Shown: positions 15,832 through 47,034 of the stretch, piece after piece
Numbering within the stretch: position 1 is the first letter of the stretch
Layout: each line of letters starts with the position of its first letter
IMG/VR virus record: IMGVR_UViG_3300048837_000408
Coordinates: 1-62,620 of that record
Source: a virus
Taxonomy: Duplodnaviria > Caudoviricetes
Length of the DNA stretch: 62,620 nt
Strand: one strand, 5' to 3'
Notes under the pieces: model-generated
The model's input: only the letters and a program-made list of their open reading frames with translations
Database searches by the model: none
What the model was told of the DNA's origin: nothing
Position numbers and translations under genes: made by a program

Positions 15832-17771
15832 CGGTTCTGGCAACACTTGAGTCAGTAGAGGAAACCCTACAGCGGATTGAACTGGTAGCCAACGAGATCC
15901 ACCAGAAGCTCACCATCTCGGGTGATCAGATCGTGGTGATTGGGGGACTGTCAGATATTTCCGAAGACCTGGGGCTGATCAAGGCGGGTGAGTTCCGGTC
16001 AGGTACGGGTGTCCCTCTCAAGAGTGGTTTTACTGGGGTGCGGATCGGCGCTCCTGGCTGGCTGTACGGCAGCACCCGCTATGCCATTGTGGGGATGCAA
16101 GCGGATGTGCTCAAGTTCGGATTATCCGTAGAGACTGGGGAGATCCTGGCACAGTTAGGTACGATTGCGGGCTGGACGATCAACGATACTCAGATCACCA
16201 AGGGCAACCTGATCATTGACAGCAGCGTACCCTCTATTGAGACTGCGGATTACAGCCCTGGTTTGATTGGCTTCAAGATGAACGGTGCTGGGAATGCGGA
16301 GTTCGCTAACGTGCGGGTGCGCGGGGAGATCCGGGCTACGGTACTGGCCTATAACGAACTGACTGCTACGGCTGGGAGCCAGGGCATCTTCAAGAGTGCT
16401 GGGAAGCTGCAATCAGATGTCACCGTACCGGCCTCCCCCACCACATTCAACCTGGACATATCCGATCCAGCTTCCGGCCATGCTCAGTTATTCGCAGCCA
16501 ATGATCTACTCCTGATTGCTACCGGAACGACAAAGACCTGGGTGAAGGTCAATTCAGCCAGCGATCAAACTACGTTCTGGCGCTACGTGTGTGTCATCCA
16601 ATCTGGGTCAGAAACCACCCACCGGGCGGGAGCCATTGTGGTGGATTACGGAGCATCCGGTCAGGGTTTCCTGTATATGACCGCCGATGATCCTGATGGC
16701 CCATTCTATTCCATCCGTACCCATGCGGGTGCACCCTGGACAACCCAAACAGAACTAGGTAGGTTCGGCAATCTCAAAAATGGGTGGGGGTATGGGGCAT
16801 CCAACATTTATGGAATTGCACTTGGAACCTATGCCGCCAACCAAGGGAACATGACCTGGGATCCCCCTAATGGGCTGCGCCTGGGGATTCATAATGTCAC
16901 CTATATGCAATTCTACAGTGATGGGGGCGTAGGAAAAGCTAAAATCCTGGGCAAGCTAGAGATGCCGGGAACCAGCAGCGCCATCTCCATTGGAGCAACC
17001 CCGCCTACCGCTGCCAATGCGGGGACAGGTGTTTGGATTGATCGGACTGGTTTCTACTCCCTGGCTTCTAATGTCTATCAAGTAAAGATAGATGCTACCA
17101 ATGGAAAGTTATATGCAGGTGGTGGCGATGTCATCCTGGACATAGATGGATTGACCTTTGCTTATGGTACTACTACCAAGACGGTTAGCTGGAAGACGGG
17201 GGCAACTGAGTATGGAAAGATACGGGTAGTCAACGCAGTTCCCGGTCAGGCTCGGATAAATTTCTACACTGATGGGATAGTAGAAGCCTACTTAGATTCT
17301 GTCTATGGCATGTGGGCATCCAATCTCTACTCAAATGAAAACGTAAAGTATAAAGGCGCATTGATTTATGAGGATGCAGGTGGGGGAACGACTCTAGTAT
17401 ATGGGTTCCACCCACTTGCTGCCCCCCTGACATCTACTGCCTGGGATGGGGACGCACGATCCACCACAGCAAAAACCAAGATCGACCTATCCTCTGTCTT
17501 TGGCGCACCCGCTGGAGTCAAAGCAGTTATGTGCGATATAGCCATCCGAGATAGTGGGAGTTCTGGGGCAGATACTTATCTAATCCTCAGTCCGAACAAT
17601 ACATCTGGATCTGGTTTACTCACGGATTGCGGTGGACAGGTGGACGATAGTTGGGAGCGTGACAATCTCATTGTACCCTGTGATGCTAACGGGGATATTT
17701 ATTTTCAGAATGTAGCCAGTGGTGCGGGCACAATGGATGTGTTCCTCACCATCTGGGGTTATTGGATCTAA
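15828..17771 (+). CDS. Tail fibre / receptor-binding protein
   Basis: 647 aa Gly/Thr-rich; GTIAGWTI and GNAEFANVRVRGEI motifs; TIWGYWI-type fibre tip. Confidence 0.75.
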   Translation: MTVLATLESVEETLQRIELVANEIHQKLTISGDQIVVIGGLSDISEDLGLIKAGEFRSGTGVPLKSGFTGVRIGAPGWLYGSTRYAIVGMQADVLKFGLSVETGEILAQLGTIAGWTINDTQITKGNLIIDSSVPSIETADYSPGLIGFKMNGAGNAEFANVRVRGEIRATVLAYNELTATAGSQGIFKSAGKLQSDVTVPASPTTFNLDISDPASGHAQLFAANDLLLIATGTTKTWVKVNSASDQTTFWRYVCVIQSGSETTHRAGAIVVDYGASGQGFLYMTADDPDGPFYSIRTHAGAPWTTQTELGRFGNLKNGWGYGASNIYGIALGTYAANQGNMTWDPPNGLRLGIHNVTYMQFYSDGGVGKAKILGKLEMPGTSSAISIGATPPTAANAGTGVWIDRTGFYSLASNVYQVKIDATNGKLYAGGGDVILDIDGLTFAYGTTTKTVSWKTGATEYGKIRVVNAVPGQARINFYTDGIVEAYLDSVYGMWASNLYSNENVKYKGALIYEDAGGGTTLVYGFHPLAAPLTSTAWDGDARSTTAKTKIDLSSVFGAPAGVKAVMCDIAIRDSGSSGADTYLILSPNNTSGSGLLTDCGGQVDDSWERDNLIVPCDANGDIYFQNVASGAGTMDVFLTIWGYWI

Positions 17772-26236: not shown

Positions 26237-26771
26237 TCCTGTATTCCTTTCTAATGTCTTTCGTATAGTCTGCGAATCGTTGAACCGCCAGCCGGAAGTC
26301 CCCCACCACCATGCTCAGTAGAACCTTGGGGGTGTATGCTGCCACCACTACCTCCACATTGGAGGGGAACAGGGCGGGGCGGGGCAACCGACAGGCATTG
26401 ATCTTGGATACCGTCTGCCCCACGCAAATCTTTGTTACCTCGCTACCCATCAGGAGCACCCCACGTGCGGTGCGTAGCTCCTCAAGGAACATCTCCATCA
26501 TATGCGCGTAGCATTGTTCCTTGAACTCTTTACCCACCTTGGGGTCGTGTCTCCACAGCAGGGTCGCCCGACACTCACCGTACTGGATGCCAGCCCGGAT
26601 CAGTTCACTACGGAGGGCTTGCCCCGCTTCTCCCACGAAGGTAGCATTGACCCGCAGTTCCTCATAGTCAGGCGACTCGCCCACCAGCAGGATCGGAGCG
26701 TTCTTCTTACCGGAAGTGGCTACCTCTTTCCTTTTACAGACGGGGCACTCGTTCATTTCTTCTCTCCCCAA
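26226..26771 (-). CDS. Family-4 uracil-DNA-glycosylase-like protein adjacent to PolA
   Basis: CPVC, ILLVGESP..EE, FVGEAG, LLMG motifs; final HP motif reads TP. Confidence 0.75.
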   Translation of the reverse strand: MGREEMNECPVCKRKEVATSGKKNAPILLVGESPDYEELRVNATFVGEAGQALRSELIRAGIQYGECRATLLWRHDPKVGKEFKEQCYAHMMEMFLEELRTARGVLLMGSEVTKICVGQTVSKINACRLPRPALFPSNVEVVVAAYTPKVLLSMVVGDFRLAVQRFADYTKDIRKEYRNGG

Positions 26772-28477
26772 TTTGGTCCCCAGAATGGCTCCGCCACTAC
26801 CGGGATGGTGTCACCCAATGTCATGCGCCCCGCCTCTGTCCAGGCATCACACAGTAATTGGATATACGCATCCTTGTATTCCAGCGGGACATCACACACG
26901 ATCTCATCGTGCACGAACATGGTCAGGCAGAAGGGCAGTCCCCGCCTGGTCGCCTCACTGTGAACGAACGCACCCGCGATCTTGGTTTGATGGGCAGCAG
27001 TGGATTGAATCGGGGCGTTGATCGCATTGTTCTTCCACTGATAGGAGTGCATATTCATCCAGCACCGCCGACCCAAAGCGTTCCGCACATACTCTTTGCG
27101 CTGCGCCTCACGCCGATACTTCTCCATGTACAGCTTCACCCCAGGGAACCCCCGGAAGTAGGTCGCTAGATGTCGTTCGGCTTCTTCCTCCGAGATGCCA
27201 GCCTTCGCCGCAATCCCCGCAGCACTCATACCATAGGGGATACCCAGGTTGATCGACTTTGCAGTTAGATACTTTGCCTTGTCGGACTTGTCGAAGTTTG
27301 GATCACTGAAGACCAACCGCCCGGTGGTGATGTGGGGACTGATGCCACTCTGGAGATCCCCGATGAGGTGCTTGTCCCCGCTGAGTTTAGCGAGAATGCG
27401 AGGTTCCTGTTGAGCAACATCTGCCCCCACTGTGATACAACCCTTCCCCGGTATAAATAGATTCCGAAATTCCGGCACGGTACGAGCGGGAATATTCTGG
27501 AGATTGGGATCTGTGCTTGACATTCTGGAGGTATCCACCGCCCCACAAATTTTCCAGTTGGTGTACACCCACTCATCGTCCTCCAGGTACTTTTCAATCC
27601 AGTTGTATCCATAGGTTCCCGCCGCCTTCGAGTAGTGTCTATACGCAAGAATGTTGTCGATCAGTTCCAGACCGGACTTGCGCCCCCGCTGGATGAGCTT
27701 ATCCTTCAGATCGTTCAGGTGTTCCTCATCCGTGGAGGGAATCTTGAACCCAAACACTTCCTGAATTTTCTTCTGTACCTGCTGCCACGATCCGGGGTTG
27801 AAGTCAAGGCTTGCTCTGATCTCATCGGATTTAGTCTGGAAGGTATGCGCCAGATTCGTCCACCCCTCTACATCTATCCGAGCGGGGGGCATATCCAGCA
27901 CCACCCAGATCATCGGAGCGTCAGCATCCCAGTAGAAATCAAAGGGTTCATCATTATCTTCTATGTAGGCCATCTGCTGTTTGGCTATCCGCAAGGTGGA
28001 CAGGGCATCCTTCGCCGCGTACTCCTTACGTTGGGGGGTCATCTCGGTTGCGGATTGGAACTCGTCCCGCGTTTCCTTCTCCATGTACTCCCCCAACCAA
28101 CGGATCGAGAGGGAACCCAGATCGAACAGTGAGTGATACCCACCCCATAGCTCCTGATCCACCAGCATCGTGTCCCAGATAGGGCGGGGGAGGATGGTTG
28201 CCCATCTCCGCATCTGACGCAGATCGAACACCGCGTTTTGTAGCACCCATCGTCCCGCCTTCAGTAGATCCACCACCTTACGCAGATCATAGGAGTCGTA
28301 GATTTGGTATACTGTCGGATTATCGCTATCCATATCCCGCTCTAGGGCGATGGACAGACAGGCGAACTCACCCGTTGGCCGATGGAGCTTACCATCAATC
28401 ATGGAATACAGTTCCATATCTAGACTAGCCATCTCACCTGAATAGGCTTCAGGCGGTAGCCCCTCATGGACGATCAT
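26753..28477 (-). CDS. polA: Family A DNA polymerase with 3'-5' exonuclease
   Basis: ExoI DME, ExoII NAVFD, ExoIII YAAKD; RMSSTDPNLQNIP, DVAQQEPR, KSINLGIPYG, VHDE. Confidence 0.95.
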   Translation of the reverse strand: MIVHEGLPPEAYSGEMASLDMELYSMIDGKLHRPTGEFACLSIALERDMDSDNPTVYQIYDSYDLRKVVDLLKAGRWVLQNAVFDLRQMRRWATILPRPIWDTMLVDQELWGGYHSLFDLGSLSIRWLGEYMEKETRDEFQSATEMTPQRKEYAAKDALSTLRIAKQQMAYIEDNDEPFDFYWDADAPMIWVVLDMPPARIDVEGWTNLAHTFQTKSDEIRASLDFNPGSWQQVQKKIQEVFGFKIPSTDEEHLNDLKDKLIQRGRKSGLELIDNILAYRHYSKAAGTYGYNWIEKYLEDDEWVYTNWKICGAVDTSRMSSTDPNLQNIPARTVPEFRNLFIPGKGCITVGADVAQQEPRILAKLSGDKHLIGDLQSGISPHITTGRLVFSDPNFDKSDKAKYLTAKSINLGIPYGMSAAGIAAKAGISEEEAERHLATYFRGFPGVKLYMEKYRREAQRKEYVRNALGRRCWMNMHSYQWKNNAINAPIQSTAAHQTKIAGAFVHSEATRRGLPFCLTMFVHDEIVCDVPLEYKDAYIQLLCDAWTEAGRMTLGDTIPVVAEPFWGPNWGEKK

Positions 28478-29804
28478 AATATTTGATCCTTCTCCCCAAC
28501 CATTCAGTCACCGTGGTTGACACCACATTACCCGCCATCCGGTACTGCGTACTGTCGCTCATCCCATCGCACCAATCATCGGGGAATCCCTGAAGTCTCA
28601 TACATTCAACCGGAGTCAATCGGCGCACACCCACCGTACCGACCATAAGGTCGGTACTACTCTTATAGTCACGCATGGCTATGGTACTGGCTACTTCATC
28701 CTCCTCACACTGATCCGATCGTTGCATTCGATAGGTAACTGCGGGAGGATGATCTAATGCTAAGGTATCAGTAACTTCTATTGAATGAATTGGCCCCTGT
28801 GCTCCTGTTTGATTGGTGCGAAACGCTACTGTTACATAATTATCACTGTCCTCTCGATGGGACAATTGTGCCTGAGAACGCAGAGAGCGCGCACAATCCC
28901 TTGAAACCATTACCGGATTTGTATAGTTTAGTGAATACGATCCATTCTCCTTTGCTTGTAGTGTCCCACTCACGCCCCCCTGTAATCGGAAGTTTCTAAC
29001 ATCTACTGCATCGTTGAATAGATACAGCCCAGTCTTGGCCCCCATCCCACCACCGTCACCCTGGAGTGTGACTGATGTGTCCGGATCTATTCTAATTCGG
29101 TCTGCTGTCCTGCCGAAGTCAATAGTGCTTTCTTCAGAATGGGAGGCAGCTCCTTCCCCCGCTTTTCTGCTCGGCGGAGTATCCCCAGGCAAGCCTTCTG
29201 GCTCAAGTAATACTTGGATGCTACCTTCCCCTCCAAAATGGACGACAACGAACACACGCTTGCGCCGTTGGGCCAGTCCGAAATATTGGGAATCCAATAC
29301 TCTCCATGCGAGTGTCGCTTGTCCACTTCGAGCCACGCCGGTTCTTGCCCACCGCCCAGATCGAGGCATTGGAATGTCGGCTTGGAGCAGTTCCGCAATG
29401 ACCGCCTGGAAATCGCGTCCCTGGTTGCTTGACAAAGCACCCGGTACATTCTCCCAGACTGCCCAATCGGGGCCGACCTCTCGAATAATTCTTGCTCCCT
29501 CAAAGAATAGGTTGCTTCGCTTACCATCTAATCCCTCCCGCCGCCCCGCCACCGATAAGTCCTGGCAAGGTGAACCGAAACTAATAATGTCTGCATACGG
29601 TAATGGGAAGGGCCTTCCTTCCCCACACAATTGAATGTCGCCGTAGATCAGATGGTCAGGCCAATGCTTGCGGAGCACCTGCTGGCAGTTCTTGTCAATC
29701 TCTACGTGCGCGATTGTCTCAATCCCCGCTTGCTCAAAGCCATAAGCGAACCCGCCCATCCCGGCAAAGAGATCAATATGATTCACCAGACCTCCCGGCA
29801 GCAC
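28464..29804 (-). CDS. C5 cytosine DNA methyltransferase
   Basis: DLFAGMGG, GSPCQD, ENV, QRRKR, RRLTPVECMRLQGFP, GN motifs; likely start GTG 29786. Confidence 0.93.
   Translation of the reverse strand: MLPGGLVNHIDLFAGMGGFAYGFEQAGIETIAHVEIDKNCQQVLRKHWPDHLIYGDIQLCGEGRPFPLPYADIISFGSPCQDLSVAGRREGLDGKRSNLFFEGARIIREVGPDWAVWENVPGALSSNQGRDFQAVIAELLQADIPMPRSGRWARTGVARSGQATLAWRVLDSQYFGLAQRRKRVFVVVHFGGEGSIQVLLEPEGLPGDTPPSRKAGEGAASHSEESTIDFGRTADRIRIDPDTSVTLQGDGGGMGAKTGLYLFNDAVDVRNFRLQGGVSGTLQAKENGSYSLNYTNPVMVSRDCARSLRSQAQLSHREDSDNYVTVAFRTNQTGAQGPIHSIEVTDTLALDHPPAVTYRMQRSDQCEEDEVASTIAMRDYKSSTDLMVGTVGVRRLTPVECMRLQGFPDDWCDGMSDSTQYRMAGNVVSTTVTEWLGRRIKYYDRP
29087..29527 (-). CDS. Nested alternative-frame ORF inside the C5 MTase
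   Basis: 146 aa containing SLSSILE...KYYLSQKACLGILRRA..RGKELP, a segment normally associated with C5 MTases. Confidence 0.6.
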   Translation of the reverse strand: MVSEATYSLREQELFERSAPIGQSGRMYRVLCQATRDAISRRSLRNCSKPTFQCLDLGGGQEPAWLEVDKRHSHGEYWIPNISDWPNGASVCSLSSILEGKVASKYYLSQKACLGILRRAEKRGKELPPILKKALLTSAGQQTELE

Positions 29805-30103
29805 ACCCGGAAGTAATACGGAATTTCATACTCATCTTCAAACACCAACTCAACCACAATCCCAGCATCTAACAAAACTAGAGCCTCATCCAAAACAAGG
29901 GTGGTTCCGAAGCAAGGCTTTCCCTGCTCATTCATATTGAATGCCGCCCGCACGAAGATCAGATCCATCGCATCCAGCATCTCGGTCATCCCCTGTAGGT
30001 TGTGGAACAGAGCATTGACACCCCCATCGAACTGTACCGGATTGATGTCATTCTCTACGATCTCATATACCTTCTCAGAGATTATGCCAACTAAGTCCTT
30101 CAT
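29783..30103 (-). CDS. Hypothetical protein
   Basis: MKDLVGII start within the 158-aa ORF. Confidence 0.55.
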   Translation of the reverse strand: MKDLVGIISEKVYEIVENDINPVQFDGGVNALFHNLQGMTEMLDAMDLIFVRAAFNMNEQGKPCFGTTLVLDEALVLLDAGIVVELVFEDEYEIPYYFRVCCREVW

Positions 30104-31232
30104 CTTCCCAGCCCCTTTCCCCAGTGAAACCAAATCTAATTGCACCAATACCCGACTTATACCCACCGCGACTTGCCCCCATAATAAGATAAGAACTACC
30201 TTCAATATATGGAAGTTTATTCGCTTTGTTATCCTTACCCATATCGACAAAGATACCATCAGGGTTGTAAATCAGGACAATCATATAGGCCATTGCTTCA
30301 GCCAGCCGACTATAACGAATGTGGTTTACTCTCGGAATACCTCCAATGTACTTATCACTCAATTGACACAGCAATACAATGGGACGATCAATCAACTTTG
30401 CCGTGTTTGCGATAGTCATGTAGATATAGGATGCATTTGCTGTATCTTCCCGCCCCCCCTTGGGAGTCATCAAATCCGCAAAGTCAATGAATACACAATA
30501 AATCTCGGGGTCACTAGCAATAAGGCGGCTGATGGCAACGGAGGCAGAATCCACATCATAGATCCCATCATCCATTCTCAGTAGCTTTCTCTGCCCATCG
30601 GGTAGGTTGGGTCGTATCTCAAACCACCGCGCCATGATCTCCTCAGCCTTCATCTCTAAACTCAGTAATCCGACTTTCTTTTTCTTGCGGGTCATCTTGT
30701 CTATCAACTTAACAACCGTAGTTGTTTTTCCAGTTTTGGGTGGTGCTCCCACTAAGATCATTCCAGATGCGGGCATCCCCCCAAAGTATTCATCCCATCC
30801 CTCCCAGTAAGTCGGTATCCACTTAGCTTTCCTTGGCTCAATCTGATCGCCAGATCGCCAGTTGAAGCGGTTGATTTCCAGCTTTGAGAGTTCAGCACCG
30901 GCCCTACTAATATCTATCTCCTCACCCTTGAGGAGCCTCCGCACCGATTTATCCAACGATGCGCCGACCTGAACGCGGGTTGCAACCGTTTCCAATAACT
31001 TGATGTATGAACTTGTGTCTGTATCTTTTACTGAGTCTGCGGCGAGTAGCGCCGTCTGTACTGGTTGAAAGCCCACGTGCCCTATAATATCGGCCTGATC
31101 TTTTCCGGCCACCACCTCCTTTACGATCTGATCATACGGCGCTTCCAGCGCCAACAGGTCTACCGATGCGGGGCTGATCCTTCCTTGCAGCACCAGCCCA
31201 GTGACGATTTGTGATGCCGCCGACCAATCCAT
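30075..31232 (-). CDS. DnaB-like replicative helicase
   Basis: GAPPKTGKT Walker A, SLEM, FIDFADL, LCQL motifs. Confidence 0.88.
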   Translation of the reverse strand: MDWSAASQIVTGLVLQGRISPASVDLLALEAPYDQIVKEVVAGKDQADIIGHVGFQPVQTALLAADSVKDTDTSSYIKLLETVATRVQVGASLDKSVRRLLKGEEIDISRAGAELSKLEINRFNWRSGDQIEPRKAKWIPTYWEGWDEYFGGMPASGMILVGAPPKTGKTTTVVKLIDKMTRKKKKVGLLSLEMKAEEIMARWFEIRPNLPDGQRKLLRMDDGIYDVDSASVAISRLIASDPEIYCVFIDFADLMTPKGGREDTANASYIYMTIANTAKLIDRPIVLLCQLSDKYIGGIPRVNHIRYSRLAEAMAYMIVLIYNPDGIFVDMGKDNKANKLPYIEGSSYLIMGASRGGYKSGIGAIRFGFTGERGWEDEGLSWHNL

Positions 31233-31956
31233 TTGCTACCCATGCCTCCTCCGCTCGATGGAACGCCAACTCATAATAATGAGGATCATTCTCAATCCCA
31301 ATAAAACACCTTCGTAAATTGATACAAGCCTCAGCCGATGTACCAGACCCCATTACGGGATCTACTACCAGATCCCCCGGACGAGTATAGGTTTCGATAA
31401 GATACTCAAATAGGAGAAGCGGTTTTTGTGTTGGATGCACCTTCCCCTTCTGTGACGCATTAGAATAATTCAGAATATTCTTTGGGTAGTAAAGATTATT
31501 TCTTGTGGTCACAGCAGATGGGTCTATAAAATAATTTGTACTGGATGAATACCCACCCTTATTTCTAACCTTACCCCGCTCCTCCATCTTAGGATAATAG
31601 GTTACCTGTGATTTTCCAAATACCAATACATCCTCTGTAATTTGAAATGGCTGTTTTTTGGCATTGGCAAATCCAGCACTATTGTTTTTATTCCATACCC
31701 ACCGATGCCGATACTGCTTCAAATTACTCATTACCAACATACTGGTGAATGGCTCAATGGCAGTCAATACTATTGCAGCATTGGGGGTAGTGATCCGTTT
31801 AAACTGATCCCACATGACATCCAACGGAATCATTTTGTCCCAAGTATTACGTGCCGTTTTCTCATACGGCAGATCCGCCAAGATCATATTGACTGATCCA
31901 TCTCCCACCCGATCTAACAGATGTAGACATTCTCCCAACCACATTTGACAGTCCAT
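31132..31956 (-). CDS. N4/N6 DNA methyltransferase (beta class)
   Basis: DLPY, HPTQKP, DPVMGSGT, FIGIE. Confidence 0.92.
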   Translation of the reverse strand: MDCQMWLGECLHLLDRVGDGSVNMILADLPYEKTARNTWDKMIPLDVMWDQFKRITTPNAAIVLTAIEPFTSMLVMSNLKQYRHRWVWNKNNSAGFANAKKQPFQITEDVLVFGKSQVTYYPKMEERGKVRNKGGYSSSTNYFIDPSAVTTRNNLYYPKNILNYSNASQKGKVHPTQKPLLLFEYLIETYTRPGDLVVDPVMGSGTSAEACINLRRCFIGIENDPHYYELAFHRAEEAWVANGLVGGITNRHWAGAARKDQPRIGRPVGAGSAV

Positions 31957-32794
31957 ATAACACCTCCTTCAAACCTTGAGCATCTTTCTGTAAGTAATCA
32001 TTTGGATCTTTCGCGCCCTCCGGGTAATCCAATCGCGCCACCTGCCCACGCCAGTCTAAGCCAGCCGCCAGCAGGTTCGCTTCTCGTTCTTCGCCTTTAT
32101 CGGGTAGGATGCAGATTTTGTACGGCCACCAGCCAAACCAATCTGGCTTGATATTACTCTTGCCTACTGACGGTGTACTGACGGCATACCCCATTAAGGC
32201 CAACGAGATAGCATCGAATAATCCAAACGTAATAAAGAGGGTGGTTCCACCCATCTTCCAGGTGGGGGTATAAATCCCCGGCTTCTGTCCCTTCACTTGA
32301 AAGAACCTCTGCCCGGTCTTCCCTTGCACCCAGCTTCCAGCCCGAAACAAGATGTCCTTGAGAGAGCCGTCCTGTCGGTAGGATGGAACCACATACCACC
32401 CATCCCAATACCCCAACTGATACTTGCTGATCGCTTCCCCAATGCCACGCTTGATGAGATAGTCCTGGTATTCCTCATGCTTGCGTAAATACGAATGGGC
32501 AGCATTGACAAAGTGATCCGGTTCCATACCAGTTGGGATATGGGGTTCGTACTCTGCGGGTTTAGTGAGCCGGTTGATCGGACGAAGCGCAACACGCTCC
32601 AATAAATGCTCCGTCCGACCCGTTGCCCCGCACGCCACGCAGCGGTATCTGTCCTCGTATACCAGTAAGGATGGCTTGTTATCCTCATGGTAGGGGCAGA
32701 TCGCGGATACATAACGTTCGTACCGCCGTGCCCCTTCCAGAGCCATCGCAAGATCGAGGACATCACCGCTGGACATTCTTAGTCTTCCCTCCAC
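31862..32794 (-). CDS. DNA primase (CHC2 zinc finger plus TOPRIM)
   Basis: CPYHED.KPS..C..C, G.FDAIS, PD, KDPND; the usual TOPRIM E reads F (ITFG). Confidence 0.85.
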   Translation of the reverse strand: MEGRLRMSSGDVLDLAMALEGARRYERYVSAICPYHEDNKPSLLVYEDRYRCVACGATGRTEHLLERVALRPINRLTKPAEYEPHIPTGMEPDHFVNAAHSYLRKHEEYQDYLIKRGIGEAISKYQLGYWDGWYVVPSYRQDGSLKDILFRAGSWVQGKTGQRFFQVKGQKPGIYTPTWKMGGTTLFITFGLFDAISLALMGYAVSTPSVGKSNIKPDWFGWWPYKICILPDKGEEREANLLAAGLDWRGQVARLDYPEGAKDPNDYLQKDAQGLKEVLYGLSNVVGRMSTSVRSGGRWISQYDLGGSAV

Positions 32795-33624
32795 GCCTTG
32801 CGCTTCGCCTTGGGCGCAGGTTCCGGTTCGACTTCATCCTCATCATCTTCCCATTCTTCTTCATCCTGCTTGGGCTTCTTCACCTCGGCGGGAACTTCGA
32901 ATGGGTTCTCAAATTCTTCTTCCTCAACCGGCTTGGCTTTCTTGGTCGCACCCTTCACAGCTTTCTTGAACATACCCGCAGGTACTTCCGCCAGGGTCTT
33001 GATGTATCCATTCTCCATCGTCACCATGAACGGCTCATCCCGCTCCGAGAGGATCTGTTCCAGATAAGGCAACACATTGTCCGAGTAGGCAAGGCTTTCT
33101 TGCACCACATCGAACCCGGCCAACTCCAGGAAGTCATACACCTTTTTGTTCTGACCCTTGGAGCCATTCAGGTAGGCAGTCCCATCCTTGTCCCGTCCGA
33201 AGTTGTACTCCAGGAACAGGGGCATCTCCGCACCTTCCCAATCCCCATTCAGGATCTCCAACAGGACGGTGAACTGAAGGTGCTCGGGCTTGTAGTAACT
33301 GCGACCATCCCGGAGCTTGACATCCTTCCCCTCCACCATGCGGGGCATGGGAAGTTCACCGGGCTTGGCAACGAACCGCTTGAACCGAACGATGTGCGTG
33401 CCACCCGTAGGATACAGGGAGTACAGCATATCCCCACCGCCATTAGTACGGACGGTGCAGCTTTCCAGTTGGTTAGCCATTGGGAGGCACAGGTATTCCG
33501 GGATACCGTCTGGACGTGGGATGCGGATAGTCTCGTCCTCATCATAGATGATGATCGTGGACTTGCCGATCTTGACCTTGACATTACTCAAAGTATTACT
33601 GTAAGTCTTATTTTCAACGCGCAT
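32779..33624 (-). CDS. Probable single-stranded DNA-binding protein
   Basis: Next to primase; beta-rich core and long acidic C-terminal tail. Confidence 0.45.
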   Translation of the reverse strand: MRVENKTYSNTLSNVKVKIGKSTIIIYDEDETIRIPRPDGIPEYLCLPMANQLESCTVRTNGGGDMLYSLYPTGGTHIVRFKRFVAKPGELPMPRMVEGKDVKLRDGRSYYKPEHLQFTVLLEILNGDWEGAEMPLFLEYNFGRDKDGTAYLNGSKGQNKKVYDFLELAGFDVVQESLAYSDNVLPYLEQILSERDEPFMVTMENGYIKTLAEVPAGMFKKAVKGATKKAKPVEEEEFENPFEVPAEVKKPKQDEEEWEDDEDEVEPEPAPKAKRKAWRED

Positions 33625-36272: not shown

Positions 36273-36516
36273 TGTTATCCTCCAACTCTGCCCAACCGAT
36301 TACAGTACCATCGGGAACCAGATCGAACTCCCACATCGGACCAACATACACATACCAAAGTCGAATCCTGCTGTTCCACCCATAACCTACTTTACCACTT
36401 GAAAGGAACACACGCACATCCCTATTGGAGTTGGGATACTCACTCGCCGGTTTGAACCCCGCAGGTAATCGGGTAGGGAACAGCCACGACTTTATTACTT
36501 TTTTCAACCAGTTCAT
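36265..36516 (-). CDS. DUF551-like protein
   Basis: AAGGAG before MNWLKK; ASEYP...VIGWAEL pattern. Confidence 0.55.
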   Translation of the reverse strand: MNWLKKVIKSWLFPTRLPAGFKPASEYPNSNRDVRVFLSSGKVGYGWNSRIRLWYVYVGPMWEFDLVPDGTVIGWAELEDNNE

Positions 36517-36541
36517 CTTGTTTTCTCCTTGTGTAACTACA

Positions 36542-36599
36542 AGTATAATAACATTCTCAGAAAAGTCAATAGGCAATTTCCAAATTCCCATGTTATAAT
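36542..36599. promoter_or_regulatory. Divergent promoters for the replication operon (-) and RNase H (+)
   Basis: Minus strand TTGACT, 16 nt, TATACT; plus strand TGTTATAAT extended -10. Confidence 0.65.
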
Positions 36600-36621
36600 T
36601 ATAGAAAGGAAGAAAAACCCA

Positions 36622-37068
36622 ATGATAAATATCTACTCTGACGGTAGTTGTTATCCGAATCCAGGACCGGGGGGCTGGGGCGCAGTCCTGATAGACGAGG
36701 AGGACCGCAAGGAAATCCACGGCTCCGACCCCGCCACCACAATATCCCGTATGGAATTGATGGCCGCTATCCAGGCTCTCGAATGTCTGGTAATTCCCTG
36801 TGAGGTAAGGCTTTACACCGACAGCCAGTATGTACAGAAGGGGATGCGGGAGTGGTCGCTGGGTTGGATGATCAACGGATGGCACACCCACAATGGGGAT
36901 AAGGTAGCCAATGCCGACCTCTGGCAGCGGCTCCTCCGCGCAGCGAAACTCCACAAAGTAGAATGGATCTGGATACGTGGTCATAGTGGCAACCCCGAGA
37001 ACGAACGAGCAGACCGCCTAGCCCTACTCGGAAGGACGATAGCCGAGCAACAGTTAGATAATGATTAG
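36622..37068 (+). CDS. rnhA: Ribonuclease HI
   Basis: YSDGSC..NPGPGGWG, RMELMA, TDSQY, NADLW, GHSGNPENERADRLA. Confidence 0.95.
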   Translation: MINIYSDGSCYPNPGPGGWGAVLIDEEDRKEIHGSDPATTISRMELMAAIQALECLVIPCEVRLYTDSQYVQKGMREWSLGWMINGWHTHNGDKVANADLWQRLLRAAKLHKVEWIWIRGHSGNPENERADRLALLGRTIAEQQLDND

Positions 37069-37070
37069 AA

Positions 37071-37167
37071 TTTTCCGAATTGACACAATTCTTTTCCGAT
37101 TCGGAAGCAACTACTTCCGATATAGCAAAAAACTCGTCCGATATAGCAAGAAACCTTTCCGATTAAC
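37071..37167. repeat. Five iteron-like repeats with exact 21-bp period
   Basis: TCCGA cores at 37074, 37095, 37116, 37137, 37158; copies 3 and 4 share TCCGATATAGCAARAAAC. Confidence 0.8.
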
Positions 37168-37169
37168 TA

Positions 37170-37198
37170 TTGACTTTTGCCTCAAAAATCGTTACACT
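37170..37198 (+). promoter_or_regulatory. Sigma70-type promoter upstream of the structured element
   Basis: TTGACT, 17 nt spacer, TACACT. Confidence 0.65.
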
Positions 37199-37201
37199 CA
37201 A

Positions 37202-37358
37202 GGCGATGGTTGCATCGCAAGCGGTCGCAGGGAACTTGTTAGTTCCCGAAAGACAAAGCGAAGCAAGAGCAACCGCCGCGCCAGCGGCAGTGAGCCGGTT
37301 GCGACAGCAACCGTAGCGAACCGAAGCAGATAGCCCATCGCCCCCGAGTGTTAGGGGG
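37202..37358 (+). ncRNA. Candidate structured ncRNA or ssDNA initiation element
   Basis: Closing helix GGCGATGG/CCATCGCC enclosing several GC-rich hairpins; no credible CDS. Confidence 0.5.
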
Positions 37359-37574
37359 AAATATTTTTAATTTCAGTAAGTGTAAAGTTGACACTAAGGC
37401 ATCGTCCTTATGAGCAGTGACTATAGGTAGTTCGCTATCGCTCACTACCTATAGTAAAGATCAGAGTTTGGACAAGGGTTTGACTCAGACGAGGGGGAGG
37501 GTCTGGTGCTAACAAAGTCCCTGAACAGTAGTGCCCCTCTCACCCCCATTCCGTTTCCCCCCTCTCTCCCCAGA

Positions 37575-38243
37575 TTAGAAATCCCGATACTTGAGCTTCC
37601 ACATAATGCGATGTCCATTACGTGAAAACATTGTTACTGGGGGGCGGGCTACAATTCCTTCTGGTAGATAGGTTCCCTGTCCCTTATCTTGAATAGTGAC
37701 GATGCTGTTTGGTAGCAATCGTTCCAGATCCTCACAAGATGTGGGAAGATACTTGATACCTCCGCAGAAGGGGACTCTCGCTATTTGTAGGGAGGTGGCG
37801 AGGGTATCGAGGAAATCTGTTTCCATCCACCACCATCCACATACCGCCTCACCTGCAATGGCGCAGTCGAACAGGCGGAATCCTACTGTATTAGAATAGT
37901 TTCCACCCTTCTGAATCTTGGGTCCGTACCCCTCTCCGAAGATTACCACCTCTGGAAATCCTTCTGGTTTTTCAAAGACGGCGTGGAGTTTTTCTTTTGT
38001 GAATGTTTCCTGTAGGTATGAGAGGAGGAAGGTTGGCATCTGGGCATCTTTGGTACGTCCTCCGTACTCAATAGATCCATCCGAATGTAAGGCTATCCTG
38101 ACATTTGTGCCATCCACCTTCTCCGTGAGAACCCAGGTATTTATATATGAAAATTCTGGGAAGCGAACATCCGTAGTGATGACCTTGAATTTATCATCCC
38201 GGTTATATAGTGTCTCAATCTTTGGGTATTCTAGTGTAATCAT
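37575..38243 (-). CDS. RNA ligase (Rnl2-like adenylyltransferase domain)
   Basis: EKVDGTN, FGEGYG.KIQ, FRLFD, EGIV, KLK motifs. Confidence 0.85.
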   Translation of the reverse strand: MITLEYPKIETLYNRDDKFKVITTDVRFPEFSYINTWVLTEKVDGTNVRIALHSDGSIEYGGRTKDAQMPTFLLSYLQETFTKEKLHAVFEKPEGFPEVVIFGEGYGPKIQKGGNYSNTVGFRLFDCAIAGEAVCGWWWMETDFLDTLATSLQIARVPFCGGIKYLPTSCEDLERLLPNSIVTIQDKGQGTYLPEGIVARPPVTMFSRNGHRIMWKLKYRDF

Positions 38244-38489
38244 TTATCCTCCTAATGGTTTTGCTTTGCTGATGGCGGCTTTCAGTTCTTCTTGTAGTCT
38301 TCGGTTCTTTACCTCCAGTTGTTGTCGGATGATTGACTCATCCTCCATCCATGTACAGTAGACGCACATCATCTGCCCTACTGTTTCCCCCTCCTCGGGT
38401 TCAACGCAGATCAGGGGTAGGCCGCAGTTCTCGCAAAACTCAGCGTTACTCCAATCTTCTTGGGTCCATTTACTCCAGGGTCCGGTCAT
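38244..38489 (-). CDS. Small zinc-binding protein
   Basis: CENC and CVYC plus coiled tail. Confidence 0.55.
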   Translation of the reverse strand: MTGPWSKWTQEDWSNAEFCENCGLPLICVEPEEGETVGQMMCVYCTWMEDESIIRQQLEVKNRRLQEELKAAISKAKPLGG

Positions 38490-43181: not shown

Positions 43182-43220
43182 ATGATAGCAGGTTATTTGC
43201 ATTTGTCAATAGGCAATTTC
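43182..43220 (-). promoter_or_regulatory. Early promoter
   Basis: GAAATTGCCTA-TTGACA, 16 nt, TATCAT. Confidence 0.65.
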
Positions 43221-45440: not shown

Positions 45441-45476
45441 GGTGATAACCTCCAAACTGAAGTAGATAGAATAGAA

Positions 45477-45686
45477 TTAGGCAGGAGTCGAACCAGTCCC
45501 GGTATACAAGCGAGTATCCAGGAAATATTCAGGATAAGAGTCAATCCAGTCTTGAGCTTCCCCCCATGCTGCATCTAATGAGAGGGACGATAGGCGAACG
45601 GTTACAATCCAGGTTCCCATAACTTGTGAGAATGCTTCTATGTAGTAGCCGAATCCAGGATAATAAGCCAACCGTGCATGTGTCAT
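45477..45686 (-). CDS. Hypothetical early protein, first gene of the leftward operon
   Basis: GGAGG RBS; directly after promoter. Confidence 0.6.
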   Translation of the reverse strand: MTHARLAYYPGFGYYIEAFSQVMGTWIVTVRLSSLSLDAAWGEAQDWIDSYPEYFLDTRLYTGTGSTPA

Positions 45687-45724
45687 GTGATAACCCTCCG
45701 GGTGACAGAATAAATCGTACTTTC

Positions 45725-45756
45725 AGTATAGCCAATAGATAGTCATTTACAATAGG
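45725..45756 (-). promoter_or_regulatory. Leftward early promoter
   Basis: CCTA-TTGTAA, 16 nt, TATACT. Confidence 0.6.
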
Positions 45757-45803
45757 ACAAACCGAAACCTAACCGAATATAACTGAACTGTAAGGTTATC
45801 TGA

Positions 45804-45868
45804 TAATCATTCTAATATTGTAATGACTCTAATATTGTAATCATTCCATATTTATAATCATTCTAAAA
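45804..45868. repeat. Four tandem 17-bp AT-rich repeats
   Basis: TAATCATTCTAATATTG, TAATGACTCTAATATTG, TAATCATTCCATATTTA, TAATCATTCTAAAA. Confidence 0.8.
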
Positions 45869-46196
45869 AGATAGTCCTGGCGTCTGACTCCTCATAGGAA
45901 TGTGACCACCCAGTCACATTGTAACCCGCTGCCCTTCCTGACTGGCCACATTCTTGCTTGCTATAAGTGTAGTTATCAAAACCATGAAGCACACCCGTAC
46001 CCGTGGCGCACCTGGCCCGCTTGCTAGTATATGTGCGGGTGGTGGCGCGGCCCAGGCTATAGGATGGGTGACGAGGTGCAGGGGGACAGGCGGGCGGGGG
46101 GAACGATACATTCGCATAGATCGAAGGTACGGTAGGTAGTGAGTTATGTTAGTTATGTTATGTTTGGTTTTGATCTATCTTTGAATAATTTTACTG

Positions 46197-46254
46197 GATA
46201 CGTAAACTAATTACTCCGAATATAAACCCCTATCTGCCAGATACGTAAACTAAT
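46197..46254. repeat. 15-bp direct repeat pair
   Basis: GATACGTAAACTAAT at 46197 and 46240. Confidence 0.75.
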
Positions 46255-46344
46255 CCCCTTCCTGGTTATATTCCCTAACCAGATTTAGATATTGCATATT
46301 GCTATTTTCATATCCCCCTGTATAATTATAGGTGGGAGGGCTTT

Positions 46345-47034
46345 ATGCAGTATTTTGGTGGGAAGCAACGGATAGCTAAACAAATCAGTTCTTATTTATT
46401 GGAACAGATGGATGATTGTCGATATTATTTTGAGCCATTTGTGGGGGGTGCATCAGTGTGTTCTCTGGTTGGGGGGAAGCGGTTTGCCTCAGATGCGAAT
46501 AAGTATCTGATTGCAATGTGGCGGGCATTACAGGATGGTTGGCTCCCGCCGAGAGTTGTTGATGAAGCTCAGTATCAGTATGTTCGGGGACATTTAGATG
46601 AAGATGCTGCGCTATCTGGATTTGTTGGGTTTGGGTGCAGTTATAGTGGTAAGTGGTTTGGGGGGTATGCGCGATCTGATGACCGGAATTATGCTGAGAA
46701 TGCTCGGAACTCTCTTATCAAACAAATCCCAACTTTGGGTCAGGTGCGATTTGAGGTGCGGGATTACCGAGAGACTTATCCAAAGCATTCCTTGATTTAT
46801 TGTGATCCCCCCTATCGGGGAACTACTGGTTATGGGGCGGTGGGTAAATTTGATTCGGAGGTTTTCTGGAGTACTGTTCGGGGATGGTCGAGAGATAATA
46901 AGGTCTATGTTAGCGAGTATCAGGCTCCGAAAGACTTTCGGTGTGTGTTGGAAATTCCGACAAAATTGGACATTCGTAATGGGGACGGTCTGAAGGAGTT
47001 TCGAATGGAGCGGGTGTTTACTTTGAATCAGTAG
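46345..47034 (+). CDS. Dam/D12-class adenine DNA methyltransferase
   Basis: YFGGK, EPFVGG, YCDPPY, VSEY; upstream promoter TTGCTA-16-TATAAT at 46299-46326. Confidence 0.9.
   Translation: MQYFGGKQRIAKQISSYLLEQMDDCRYYFEPFVGGASVCSLVGGKRFASDANKYLIAMWRALQDGWLPPRVVDEAQYQYVRGHLDEDAALSGFVGFGCSYSGKWFGGYARSDDRNYAENARNSLIKQIPTLGQVRFEVRDYRETYPKHSLIYCDPPYRGTTGYGAVGKFDSEVFWSTVRGWSRDNKVYVSEYQAPKDFRCVLEIPTKLDIRNGDGLKEFRMERVFTLNQ

Follow-up and report, generated by a model that had tools for sequence, protein, structure and literature searches.

Among described origins of replication, the closest parallels to the locus reported here are transcription-primed origins, iteron origins and single-strand priming signals. 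In ColE1 RNA II, the T7 primary origin, T4 ori(uvsY) and pAMbeta1 a promoter reads into the origin; transcription-primed origins involve RNase H and a family-A polymerase, and have a structured transcript and AT-rich DNA downstream. To our knowledge, none of the origins named has an iteron array beside its promoter. Iteron origins (lambda ori and those of theta plasmids) lie near AT-rich DNA and have between four and seven direct repeats, each of ~20 bp and in phase with two turns of the helix. Proteins of the Lin1244_N/DnaD type are known as initiators, and the origin may lie inside the initiator gene. The G4 signal consists of three hairpins in ~140 nt. The oriV of RSF1010 contains iterons, and its ssi signals are found on opposite strands.

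According to a review (PMC13037366), the RSF1010 origin has two ssi signals, and the motif GCGN(N)AGC is found at the priming origins of G4, St-1 and alpha3 and at RSF1010 ssiA; the stability of this motif is extraordinary in DNA but far lower in RNA. Structured RNAs form another group with which the locus can be compared. Y RNAs are described as 80-130 nt long, and the Rsr-linked motif of bacterial Y RNAs, GNCGAAN0-1G, is located near the 5' end (PMC4201824).

The element lies in an uncultured 62.6-kb phage of the Caudoviricetes (IMG/VR record IMGVR_UViG_3300048837_000408). The whole stretch analysed, 62,620 nt, is called the window. The features of the locus are the following.

36622-37068, plus strand: RNase HI gene of the bacterial type (Pfam RNase_H, E 5.1e-43)
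37070-37174, no strand: five direct repeats at an exact spacing of 21 bp (sequence reading and repeat search)
37170-37198, plus strand: predicted sigma-70-type promoter TTGACT-17-TACACT (9 of 12 consensus positions)
37202-37342, plus strand: multi-hairpin domain (folding and perfect-stem scan)
37341-37368, plus strand: terminator-like hairpin CCCCC-8-GGGGG followed by AAATATTTTT (terminator scan)
37359-37419, no strand: AT-rich spacer between the plus-strand cluster and the palindrome (sequence reading)
37420-37455, no strand: inverted repeat with perfect arms of 12 bp around a spacer of 12 nt (100% complementary)
37575-38243, minus strand: RNA ligase gene (Pfam RNA_ligase PF09414, E 2.7e-18)

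The hairpin cluster is tentatively read here, with slightly less than even confidence, as part of an origin-of-replication-type control region and not as a free-standing gene. The first-pass annotation had proposed either a ~140-nt RNA or a single-stranded DNA structure recognised by primase; both proposals survive the present analysis and neither is proved.

The domain is closed by a stem of 8 bp, P1, in which GGCGATGG (37202-37209) pairs with CCATCGCC (37335-37342). P1 encloses three perfect hairpins with the tetraloops TGTT, GCCA and GACA, namely H1 (GGGAACT-tgtt-AGTTCCC, 37230-37247), which caps a long imperfect arm, H2 (GCCGC-gcca-GCGGC, 37275-37288) and H3 (CGGTTGC-gaca-GCAACCG, 37296-37313). 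GCGAAGC is situated at 37258-37264, GGTTGC occurs at 37208 and 37297, and GCAACC at 37269 and 37307. The closing stem, the hairpins and these motifs had been described in the first-pass annotation and are present as described. The stretch 37314-37334 is unpaired. ARAGORN found 0 tRNA or tmRNA genes in the window, in agreement with the earlier remark that the element is not tRNA-like, and a tRNA was rejected. The annotation had also called the element switchable. An alternative pairing of the first GGUUGC with the second GCAACC does exist, 1.9 kcal/mol above the minimum free energy, but the closing stem dominates the ensemble, with pair probabilities of 0.94-0.98 for six of its eight pairs, and a switch is thus weakly supported.

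The domain has a G+C content of 0.61 and is set in AT-rich non-coding DNA. Folded as RNA, 146 nt reach -66.7 kcal/mol, compared with -42.6 +/- 3.6 kcal/mol for shuffled sequences (z -6.71; 0 of 200 as good). With flanks included, z is -5.2 on the plus strand and -5.1 on the minus strand, and with DNA parameters -5.7 and -6.0. The two strands fold equally well, which counts against an origin signal. In a scan of folding energy regressed on GC content, the window of the element ranks 24th of 4998. The summed density of perfect stems attains the genome maximum at this position (52), yet it stays inside the range of shuffled sequences (mean 40.4, maximum 59; 30 shuffles).

The chemistry of the hairpins points, as judged from their sequence, to DNA or to both strands. 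All 44 pairs of the minimum-energy fold are Watson-Crick, and the complete lack of G-U pairs is seen in 15 of 300 shuffles and in 9 of 314 natural windows. The tetraloops are neither GNRA nor UNCG. The loops of H2 and H3 (GCCA and GACA) and GCGAAGC follow the DNA mini-hairpin rule GCGN(N)AGC, and GCGAAGC, GCGCCAGC and GCGACAGC all occur on the plus strand within 51 nt; an ssi signal is characterised by stable hairpins of which one strand carries such motifs. The only two perfect hairpins of at least 5 bp in the genome, on either strand, that are capped by C-GNNA-G are the adjacent H2 and H3, and not one of 200 local shuffles contained two such hairpins within 60 nt. A cluster of three GCGN(N)AGC motifs inside 120 nt was present in 40 of 300 local shuffles. 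Enrichment of GCGAAGC was dropped as a signal because its frequency is that of chance (7 found, 5.2 expected). The single-stranded DNA reading gains support because the loops fit GCGN(N)AGC and not the GNRA rule of RNA, and also because wobble pairs are lacking, an iteron-like array of five 21-bp repeats is present, and the strand composition breaks at 37 kb (see below). The inverted repeat continues outward from P1 (ACTC, 37196-37199, with GAGT, 37346-37349) past the predicted start of the transcript, and this fits an element acting at the level of DNA.

The promoter, which the first-pass annotation had also placed here, is located between the repeat array and the hairpin cluster. Its TTGACTTTT occurs three times in the genome, against 0.39 expected, and all three copies are followed at promoter spacing by TAYACT. 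The extended form TTGACTTTT...TAYACT therefore has three matches where 0.01 are expected, and all of them are intergenic. The second member of the class (36569, minus strand) is upstream of the SNF2/replication operon, ~600 bp from the promoter of the element, and the third (50674, plus strand) is upstream of the operon starting at 50863. The plus strand of the element is probably transcribed, since its promoter is a member of this phage-specific class of three.

A sigma-70-type promoter of its own, here predicted by sequence match, is also what a small RNA gene would have. An autonomous gene for an RNA of ~150-160 nt, running from ~37205 to the hairpin and T-run at 37341-37368 and acting in trans, is possible though somewhat doubtful. 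Such an RNA would most plausibly be a protein-binding scaffold or decoy linked to RNase HI and the Rnl2-type ligase, and the five repeats would be operator sites timing its expression. The three-copy promoter class immediately upstream argues for it, as do the compact, G+C-rich domain (z -6.7) in AT-rich non-coding DNA and the terminator-like site directly after the domain; an RNA started at 37205 still forms P1 together with the full terminator (-69.6 kcal/mol). However, wobble pairs are lacking, the tetraloops are foreign to the GNRA and UNCG classes, the inverted repeat reaches upstream of the likely start, and five phased direct repeats would be unusual for the control of a small RNA promoter.

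The terminator itself is weak, which likewise tells against a small RNA. It has a GC stem of 5 bp and a loop of 8 nt, shares 2 nt with the 3' strand of P1, and its T-run is set back by three A. So short a stem and so distant a T-run make its function uncertain; the match to the consensus is weak, and terminator-like matches occur at the rate of chance (2 found, 1.9 expected, in a 2-kb scan). A terminator-like hairpin right after the cluster is more in keeping with an RNA gene than with a primer transcript and to that extent counts against an origin. A switch between P1 and the terminator was considered and dropped. The state with P1 cut to 6 bp and a full terminator stem (-71.4) is isoenergetic with the minimum (-71.6) merely through the loss of 2 bp by P1, and there is no real competition between the two structures, because P1 loses only these 2 bp.

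The first-pass annotation had recognised the hairpin element and the promoter but had overlooked the all-Watson-Crick pairing with the genome's only two C-GNNA-G-capped hairpins, the break in third-position skews, and the array of direct repeats that adjoins the 3' side of the RNase HI gene. The TTCCGAW cores of the array start at 37073, 37094, 37115, 37136 and 37157, the copy at 37136 being the variant GTCCGAT, and one inverted core is found at 37100-37106. The fifth repeat extends into the -35 box of the promoter. Copies 3 and 4 agree over ~18 of 21 positions (manual count), whereas all five copies share only the core, given as 8 bp; the 13-mer TCCGATATAGCAA has exact matches at 37116 and 37137 only. 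TRF reports a period of 21 with a score of 72 for 37114-37163, the highest tandem-repeat score in the genome, and the five-copy array is unique within the genome. It has the form of iterons, which are several direct repeats ~17-22 bp long whose spacing corresponds to about two turns of the helix. Arrays with the TTCCGAW core and 21-bp phasing are present in other phages inside genes of the replication-initiator type (Lin1244_N, DnaD/HTH_36), as found for all three ORFs that were scanned against Pfam, out of 12 translated. By this analogy, the phased arrays are consistent with origin iterons. No DnaA-box-like 9-mer was found near the array or the element, which counts against an origin.

Since 21 bp equal seven codons, the repeats can also be read as five 7-residue repeats in an open frame of 90 codons (37061-37333) that overlaps the RNase H stop. 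That this frame is a small protein gene is extremely improbable. It has no Pfam match and no clear ribosome-binding site, it has neither a homologue nor a called protein in a collection of 5.8 billion proteins, and frames of 90 codons are not rare here (62 ORFs of at least 40 aa overlap 7 kb). A coding ORF across the element was dropped, as it had no Pfam match and no homologue. The frame is uncalled in the phage's own record as well, and the non-coding nature of the region is in keeping with a small RNA.

The RNase HI gene starts with the ATG at 36622, preceded by an AGGAAG ribosome-binding site read from the sequence, and is the sole clear plus-strand gene within a minus-strand block. The RNA ligase is the final gene of the minus-strand early block and is oriented towards the hairpin element, which therefore lies exactly where the plus-strand (RNase H) and minus-strand (RNA ligase operon) units converge. 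The cluster might accordingly be a passive structural end or insulator, serving as the 3' UTR of the RNase H unit and as a barrier between the convergent units, where it would stabilise the 3' end of the mRNA and prevent collision of polymerases. No terminator follows the RNase H stop (37068) ahead of the element, no minus-strand terminator is predicted for the ligase operon, and the equal folding of both strands would suit such a role. We regard it as unlikely, however, because it leaves unexplained why a dedicated promoter separates the structure from the gene, why five phased repeats are present and why the loops are specifically C-GNNA-G, and because other operon ends of the genome have simple hairpin terminators (6018-6062).

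The skews of the third codon position, GC3 and TA3, both break at ~37 kb. On the coding strand, 15 minus-strand genes at 21-36.5 kb have a GC3 skew of +0.19 and 15 genes at 37.5-45.5 kb one of -0.07. The value is +0.21 for the 12 genes on the plus strand that extend from 46 kb round to 6 kb, whereas 14 genes at 6-20.5 kb have +0.01. A fit with strand and replication arm as terms places an origin at 37.0-37.75 kb and a terminus at 6-7 kb, near the antipode; none of 200 permutations fitted the skew as well, and the TA3 skew independently selects 37 kb. However, the second breakpoint is inconsistent between GC3 (7 kb) and TA3 (19 kb). The 37-kb break is also an operon boundary, between early and replication genes, and so is the break at 6 kb. 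As the breaks coincide with operon boundaries, an effect of gene class would predict the same group means, and both points count against an origin. Another origin candidate is an AT-rich divergent region of 0.9 kb with its own repeats at 45.5-46.3 kb; its existence counts against the present locus, although the skew disfavours it as an origin (residual sum of squares 208, compared with 136).

Several replisome genes are encoded by the phage. Pfam and PHROGs searches of the ORFs identified a family-A DNA polymerase (26753-28477), a DnaB-like helicase (30075-31232) and the RNase HI, and a CHC2 zinc-ribbon protein with PHROG DNA-primase matches (31862-32794) is read as a DnaG-type primase. A conserved neighbour of 281 aa (32779-33624) is likely, on the basis of its predicted structure (AF2 pLDDT 82), to be an SSB that has an OB fold and an acidic tail; its best Foldseek E is 0.012, with nothing at E <=0.001, and PrgE is matched at probability 0.98-0.99. 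It was dropped as a replication initiator since it resembles an OB-fold SSB instead. None of the 37 window ORFs searched with Pfam, nor of the 20 searched with PHROGs (the two sets overlap), matched an initiator family, many small ORFs being without family assignment, and the missing initiator counts against an origin. A search of the whole genome in six frames for reverse transcriptase (PF00078) gave no match, and a retron ncRNA (msr-msd) was rejected for that reason.

The RNase HI gene appears, from its sequence matches, to be a recent acquisition. Its best non-self matches (50-63% identity among the best 120 listed) are ordinary RNase HI, several of them on large contigs of bacterial size, and none of the 120 comes from the contig of 63,436 nt that carries the closest SNF2 relative. 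Because it was apparently acquired recently, RNase H would not be an ancestral part of an origin, which weighs against that reading.

The Rfam search suggested in the first-pass annotation yielded no family: there were 0 matches at the gathering threshold in the whole window with 4227 families (Rfam 15). At E up to 10, the region 36900-37700 gave six weak matches, none of them within the hairpin domain, although the first 29 nt of the domain are also covered by the weakest match, to bxd_1 (37142-37230, minus strand, 11.4 bits, E 9.2). That none of these families matches the domain even at this level tells against a small RNA, as does the outcome of the covariance search. Run on the window and on 62 loci (family and RNase H), a single-sequence covariance model recovered no sequence other than its own, and it recovered nothing in five whole family records or in bacterial genomes (0 of 5, 0 of 151 and 0 of 151). 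With 100 of the 110 TTCCGAW-array loci it gave two matches (E 0.49 and 2.4), and with 80 bacterial rnhA loci 17 matches (all at E >=0.76), none of which is significant. Pairing of a small RNA to phage genes was dropped as well. For the 57 phage genes listed, the best duplex with a translation-start region (-58.1) is no better than chance (shuffle mean -57.4 +/- 3.9), and the longest exact complementarity is 13 nt.

Direct searches for homologues gave a similar picture. There was no blastn match for 36500-38300 among 50,697 phage records or for 37060-37470 among 72,556 plasmid records, and neither blastn nor nhmmer matched the element to any of 118 loci. The exact 18-mer of H1 occurs 0 times in IMG/VR. 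Queries of IMG/VR gave 0 relatives with SNF2, one weak locus with the RNA ligase, and ten loci with RNase H, none of which has a similar element downstream. Relatives of the SNF2 protein have 68% and 53-57% identity and are on contigs of up to ~63 kb; profile scans gave <=42% identity among the matches listed, and searches with the SNF2 proteins P0002 and P0007 found no match. A search of three complete family genomes found no homologous element, and no consistent iteron or hairpin analogue was found at the syntenic boundary of 13 family loci. The skews of the relatives disagree too: G004 has a break upstream of the SNF2 block and no iteron array there, G002 has a break elsewhere, and G003 has little signal. 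This disagreement in skews and arrays, together with the negative search of the three genomes, counts against an origin.

The distant relative G004 has a Ro60/TROVE gene at the corresponding place upstream of its SNF2 block, together with a promoter and about six units that resemble Y RNAs. PF05731 matches only this relative, one of five records searched, and has 0 matches in the present genome. RNA cargo thus occurs at this position in the family, which lends support to a small RNA in the phage. The present element resembles Y RNAs in that its 5' and 3' ends pair into a stem enclosing several hairpins and in that it adjoins a gene of the RNA-repair type (RNA ligase); at ~140 nt it is also near the 80-130 nt stated for Y RNAs. 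Its 5' end, GGCGAUGG, is one base from GNCGAAN0-1G as given in PMC4201824, with U for the second A, a resemblance that favours a small RNA but leaves the motif incomplete. Unlike Y RNAs, the element has no T-arm-like or D-arm-like hairpins and no match to RF02553 at E up to 10, and the phage lacks the TROVE gene that accompanies a Y RNA within ~4 kb on the same strand. YrlA-type membership was rejected because of the motif mismatch and the absence of both an RF02553 match and a TROVE gene. A scaffold RNA of a new class, associated with RNase HI and the Rnl2-type ligase and filling the Ro60/Y-RNA slot of the relative, is improbable; it would be a Y-RNA-like closed-stem RNA without the tRNA-like domain, serving in RNA repair or against RNA-targeting defence.

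The stem-loop of H2, with its GCCA loop, presumably resembles the hairpin of one class of CRISPR repeat. The RNA might be a decoy directed at a protein of host defence, such as an RNA anti-CRISPR imitating the hairpin of a CRISPR repeat. Solitary repeat-like RNAs by which phages inhibit CRISPR-Cas are known, according to PMC10651486, but no CRISPR-DR or other Rfam model matched at E up to 10, and a decoy is very improbable.

Beyond the AT-rich spacer, the palindrome at 37420-37455 carries GCGATAGC in its own spacer on the minus strand (37434-37441), which fits the GCGNNAGC motif.

The origin-type reading, with the cluster as part of a control region, can be stated as a model. The protein-gated, transcribed cluster may supply a primer transcript, a plus-strand single-strand priming signal, or both; the proposal commands not quite half of our confidence. 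From the anatomy, promoter class, compositional break and replication genes described above, we infer protein binding, R-loop or primer use, and priming. A protein would bind the TTCCGAW array, whose five copies are in 21-bp phase and whose last copy reaches into the -35 box, and host RNA polymerase would initiate at the TTGACTTTT...TACACT promoter, which is of the same class as the neighbouring promoter of the replication operon. Rightward transcription would cross the 140-bp G+C-rich cluster into the AT-rich stretch, and the transcript, trimmed by RNase H, could become the leading-strand primer, RNase HI being encoded next door and the family-A polymerase by the phage. The displaced plus strand would form perfect hairpins with C-GNNA-G and GC-GAA-GC mini-hairpin loops, which could exclude SSB and so provide an entry site for the phage DnaG-type primase and DnaB-type helicase. 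The minus-strand palindrome past the AT-rich stretch could act likewise in the other direction.

The locus shares with G4-type origins and RSF1010 ssiA/ssiB clusters of stable hairpins on one strand with GCGN(N)AGC or CCGAAGG-type motifs. Like RSF1010, it has candidate signals on both strands, the plus-strand cluster and the minus-strand palindrome. A putative DnaG-type primase is encoded by the phage itself. Unlike the G4 and ssiA signals, the element is in a double-stranded DNA phage, behind a promoter and a repeat array, and has no sequence similarity to any of the plasmid or phage records searched. As in transcription-primed origins, a promoter reads into the region, RNase H and a family-A polymerase are encoded, the predicted transcript is structured with alternative pairings, and an AT-rich stretch lies downstream; here, however, an array adjoins the promoter, and the transcript would be short and followed by a terminator-like hairpin. 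The five 21-bp-phased repeats resemble those of iteron origins, and arrays with the same core lie in initiator-type genes of other phages. They differ in that the array is intergenic, only the 8-bp core is conserved, no initiator was recognised and DnaA boxes are lacking.

As a single example without homologues, the element carries limited weight until relatives or transcripts appear. If it is an RNA, it would be an orphan structured phage RNA between RNase H and RNA ligase, at the position of the Ro60/Y RNA locus of a relative, and would suggest that accessory functions based on RNA have a hot spot here in the phage family. The replication origins of uncultured lytic double-stranded DNA phages have almost never been mapped. 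If the origin-type reading is true, ~400 bp would unite, in one compact region, three origin devices each already known: repeats to which a gating protein binds, a promoter of the host type and, on the displaced strand, a hairpin signal like those of G4 and ssiA. Such a region would also suggest, in a form open to direct testing, how a replisome of the T7 kind (polymerase A, DnaB-type helicase, DnaG-type primase and SSB) may start without a phage RNA polymerase.

The hairpin element lies on the plus strand between an RNase HI gene and an RNA ligase gene. Its promoter, closing stem, hairpins and GCGAAGC heptamer were all found where the first-pass annotation had placed them.

Hairpin element and adjoining genes
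36622-37068, plus strand, RNase HI gene
37202-37342, plus strand, multi-hairpin domain
37202-37209 with 37335-37342, plus strand, closing stem P1
37230-37247, plus strand, hairpin H1
37275-37288, plus strand, hairpin H2
37296-37313, plus strand, hairpin H3
37575-38243, minus strand, RNA ligase gene

The 146-nt core has a folding energy of -66.7 kcal/mol, compared with -42.6 +/- 3.6 kcal/mol in dinucleotide shuffles (z = -6.71, none of 200 as good). With its flanks, the element has z-scores of -5.2 (plus strand) and -5.1 (minus strand), or -5.7 and -6.0, respectively, when DNA parameters are used. Because both strands fold far beyond their shuffles, the structure is real, although folding does not identify the strand. 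The element ranks 24th of 4998 windows of 150 nt in a GC-regressed scan. Its density of perfect stems is the genome maximum, yet within the range of 30 shuffles, and GCGAAGC occurs seven times in the genome against 5.2 expected. That the element arose by chance is scarcely to be credited.

All 44 pairs of the minimum free energy (MFE) fold are Watson-Crick; folds lacking wobble pairs were found in 15 of 300 shuffles and nine of 314 natural windows. H2 and H3 carry C-GCCA-G and C-GACA-G caps and, together with GCGAAGC, place three GCGN(N)AGC motifs within 51 nt of the plus strand. The genome has only two perfect hairpins of at least 5 bp with C-GNNA-G caps, on either strand, and both are in the element; 200 shuffles of local composition never gave two such hairpins within 60 nt. 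A weaker statistic, three GCGN(N)AGC motifs within 120 nt, was matched by 40 of 300 shuffles. A review of mini-hairpin DNA (PMC13037366) ascribes extraordinary stability to GCGNAGC and GCGNNAGC hairpins as DNA, and considerably lower stability to them as RNA, and lists such sites at the primase starts of G4, St-1 and alpha3, at ssiA of RSF1010 and at the early promoters of N4. The loops of the element obey this DNA rule and not the GNRA rule of RNA.

The inverted repeat reaches 37196-37199 and 37346-37349, and thus begins upstream of the transcript start expected at about 37205 if it lies, as is typical, about 7 nt beyond the -10 box. The alternative pairings, on which a switchable RNA of about 140 nt had been proposed, do exist, the best at a cost of 1.9 kcal/mol relative to the MFE, but P1 prevails in the ensemble. 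A local 5' hairpin alternative is 4.6 kcal/mol above the MFE. Downstream of the element an AT-rich stretch is followed by a perfect 12-bp palindrome (37420-37455), whose spacer bears GCGATAGC on the minus strand.

Five 21-bp repeats, absent from the first-pass annotation, lie in the stretch from the RNase H stop (37068) to the -35 box and form the top-scoring tandem repeat of the genome. The 9-mer TTGACTTTT occurs three times in the genome against 0.39 expected. Downstream of every copy, TAYACT stands at promoter spacing, a combination expected 0.01 times, although this statistic is inflated because the pattern was derived after the sites were seen.

Repeat cores and promoters
37073, 37094, 37115, 37136 (variant GTCCGAT) and 37157, TTCCGAW cores
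37100, inverted TTCCGAW core
36569, minus strand, TTGACTTTT promoter in front of the SNF2/replication operon
37170, plus strand, TTGACTTTT promoter in front of the hairpin element
50674, plus strand, TTGACTTTT promoter in front of the operon starting at 50863

The 9-mer and -10 box at three intergenic sites are good sequence evidence for a real promoter. The promoter-like sites at 36542-36569 and 43182-43209, both on the minus strand, have a common motif, AAATTGCCTA, directly upstream of the -35 box, and a phage regulator may bind there.

An origin-type region is the reading ranked first, with somewhat less than an even chance of being correct. It is placed there on four independent features: the phased array, a compositional break, a fold free of wobble pairs, and DNA-type loop motifs found at this site only. 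The promoter suits this reading and an RNA gene equally well. A pattern search of IMG/VR for three TTCCGAW cores at 21-bp phase retrieved 110 loci; such arrays are common in phage contigs. Because the pattern imposed the core, these loci are not homologues of the array described here. In the 12 loci translated, the arrays lie inside open frames of roughly 275-360 residues, and all three array ORFs scanned by Pfam have Lin1244_N or DnaD/HTH_36 domains. Many of the arrays fall within genes of this type and there encode 7-residue SEE-type repeats. We take these to be replication-initiator-type proteins with origin repeats inside the gene, an arrangement found in lambda. The arrays are probable origin-in-initiator-gene iterons, and the observations are consistent with phased TTCCGAW arrays marking phage origins.

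The 62,620 bp of the window form a complete IMG/VR virus record in the direct-terminal-repeat class. A giant ORF spans the record ends (59196-62618 joined to 3-6005, more than 3100 codons), showing that the ends are arbitrary. It is followed at 6018-6062 by a strong bidirectional terminator and then a new operon. Plus-strand genes, terminase and further structural genes among them, extend from about 46.3 kb via the record end to 20.5 kb, and minus-strand genes occupy 21-45.5 kb. The replication module (21-36.5 kb, minus strand) encodes RecA-like, 5'-nucleotidase, UDG-like, family-A polymerase, methyltransferase, DnaB-like helicase, CHC2 zinc-ribbon, conserved 281-aa and SNF2 helicase proteins. 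The CHC2 protein has PHROG DNA-primase matches and is read as a putative DnaG-type primase. The 281-aa protein (32779-33624, minus strand), encoded between SNF2 and primase, is predicted to have an all-beta OB-like fold with a long acidic tail (AF2 pLDDT 82); its weak Foldseek matches are ssDNA-binding proteins (PrgE, CST, LEF-3), and it is taken to be the probable SSB of the phage. The genome encodes three DNA methyltransferases, each of a different class (C5, N6/N4 and Dam-like D12; 28464-29804, 31132-31956 and 46345-47034), which suggests heavy anti-restriction modification. The minus-strand genes at 37.5-45.5 kb are small and have no significant family match, except for the terminal RNA ligase. 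No integrase or initiator turned up in Pfam scans of 37 ORFs or PHROG scans of 20, the two sets partly overlapping, and no reverse transcriptase in six frames of the whole genome.

Gene-wise third-position skews shift sharply at the intergenic region of the element.

GC3 skew on the coding strand
Minus strand, 21-36.5 kb, 15 genes, +0.19
Minus strand, 37.5-45.5 kb, 15 genes, -0.07
Plus strand, 46 kb round to 6 kb, 12 genes, +0.21
Plus strand, 6-20.5 kb, 14 genes, +0.01

GC3 skew was fitted with two terms, 0.09 for gene strand and 0.11 for replication arm. This fit has its origin at 37.0-37.75 kb and its terminus at 6-7 kb, near the antipode at 5.9 kb; an equal fit was found in none of 200 permutations. 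TA3 skew likewise breaks at 37 kb, but its second breakpoint differs, at 19 kb. Alternatively, the break might be a gene-class effect, which predicts the same group means as the replication-arm model, and boundaries between operons fall at 37 kb and at 6 kb alike. Among relatives, the break is 1-2 kb upstream of the SNF2 gene in G004 and at the divergent region in G002, and G003 has little signal. Given the operon boundaries at both breaks and the mixed relatives, the skew evidence for an origin is supportive but confounded. A 0.9-kb non-coding divergent region (45460-46340) separates the early minus-strand block from the plus-strand genes and contains about seven copies of TAATCATTC, two of GATACGTAAACTAAT and other short repeats. 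It is probably an early-promoter or regulatory region, and is a candidate alternative origin.

A close second, held tentatively, is an autonomous small RNA gene, for which the terminator-like end and a Ro60/Y-RNA precedent in G004 speak most. The promoter is credible, and the domain is compact, with a G+C content of 0.61 in AT-rich non-coding DNA. A terminator-like hairpin and T-run, a weak match, directly follow it, and an RNA starting at 37205 would keep P1 and the full terminator (-69.6 kcal/mol). That the element is instead a passive 3' end or an insulator is unlikely. Antisense pairing to phage translation-start regions was no better than chance.

Rfam gave no match at the gathering score in the whole window. 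With E up to 10 there were six weak matches; the hairpin domain contains none of them, and the weakest (11.4 bits, minus strand) overlaps only the domain's first 29 nt. ARAGORN found no tRNA, bearing out the earlier description of the element as not tRNA-like. A single-sequence covariance model found nothing significant across all locus sets and genomes searched, nor did blastn and nhmmer in the fetched loci. For the 90-codon frame that spans the region no homologue was found, nor is it among the called genes of the protein collection; a small protein encoded here is hardly believable. The element belongs to no known family, with no homologue retrieved. It may bear some resemblance to an RNA anti-CRISPR, but a role as an RNA decoy of this type is very improbable.

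There is no close cultured phage, the best SNF2 match being 32% identical. SNF2 homologues 68% and 53-57% identical are on contigs of about 47-63 kb. The loci compared for gene order, with SNF2 at most 42% identical, retain the order SNF2, 281-aa protein, primase, helicase, polymerase, and upstream of SNF2 they have neither RNase H nor RNA ligase nor the element. The window's RNase H is an ordinary bacterial-type enzyme (best matches 50-63% identical, several on large bacterial-size contigs), none of its best 120 matches is on close relatives' contigs, and the genome matches listed are mostly from Pseudomonadota, so that the cassette looks like a recent acquisition. Four phage records (L120-L123, at about 3440-3900) have an RNase H 51-53% identical to that of the window, followed by promoter-like boxes and 2-5 tandem non-coding repeats of about 55 nt before the next gene, a layout similar to that of a type III antitoxin array.

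The small-RNA reading has a precedent in the equivalent slot of the distant relative G004, where a promoter-like site, about six tandem Y-RNA-like units and a TROVE/Ro60 gene lie upstream of the SNF2 block.

Slot upstream of SNF2 in G004
15159-15834 (3070-3745 of locus L088), Y-RNA-like array, two units with T-arm-like and D-arm-like hairpins
16158-17744, TROVE/Ro60 gene, 529 aa, E = 7.8e-24, just upstream of the SNF2 gene

ARAGORN found no tRNA in this array. Its units match Rfam below threshold (YrlA, 33.3 and 26.6 bits against a gathering score of 69; nematode sbRNA, 31.8 bits). The YrlA scores alone prove little, because 13 of 14 unrelated control genomes also have sub-threshold YrlA matches. 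Nevertheless, the Y-RNA call is credible because the Ro60 gene adjoins. The window's own element was rejected as a Y RNA: hairpins like a T-arm or D-arm are absent, RF02553 does not match it, its 5' motif is one base off GNCGAAN0-1G, and the genome has no TROVE gene. The G004 array looks like a phage Ro60 and multi-Y-RNA module, and, judged from the sequence of this relative, the slot upstream of SNF2 does hold putative RNA cargo in the phage family.
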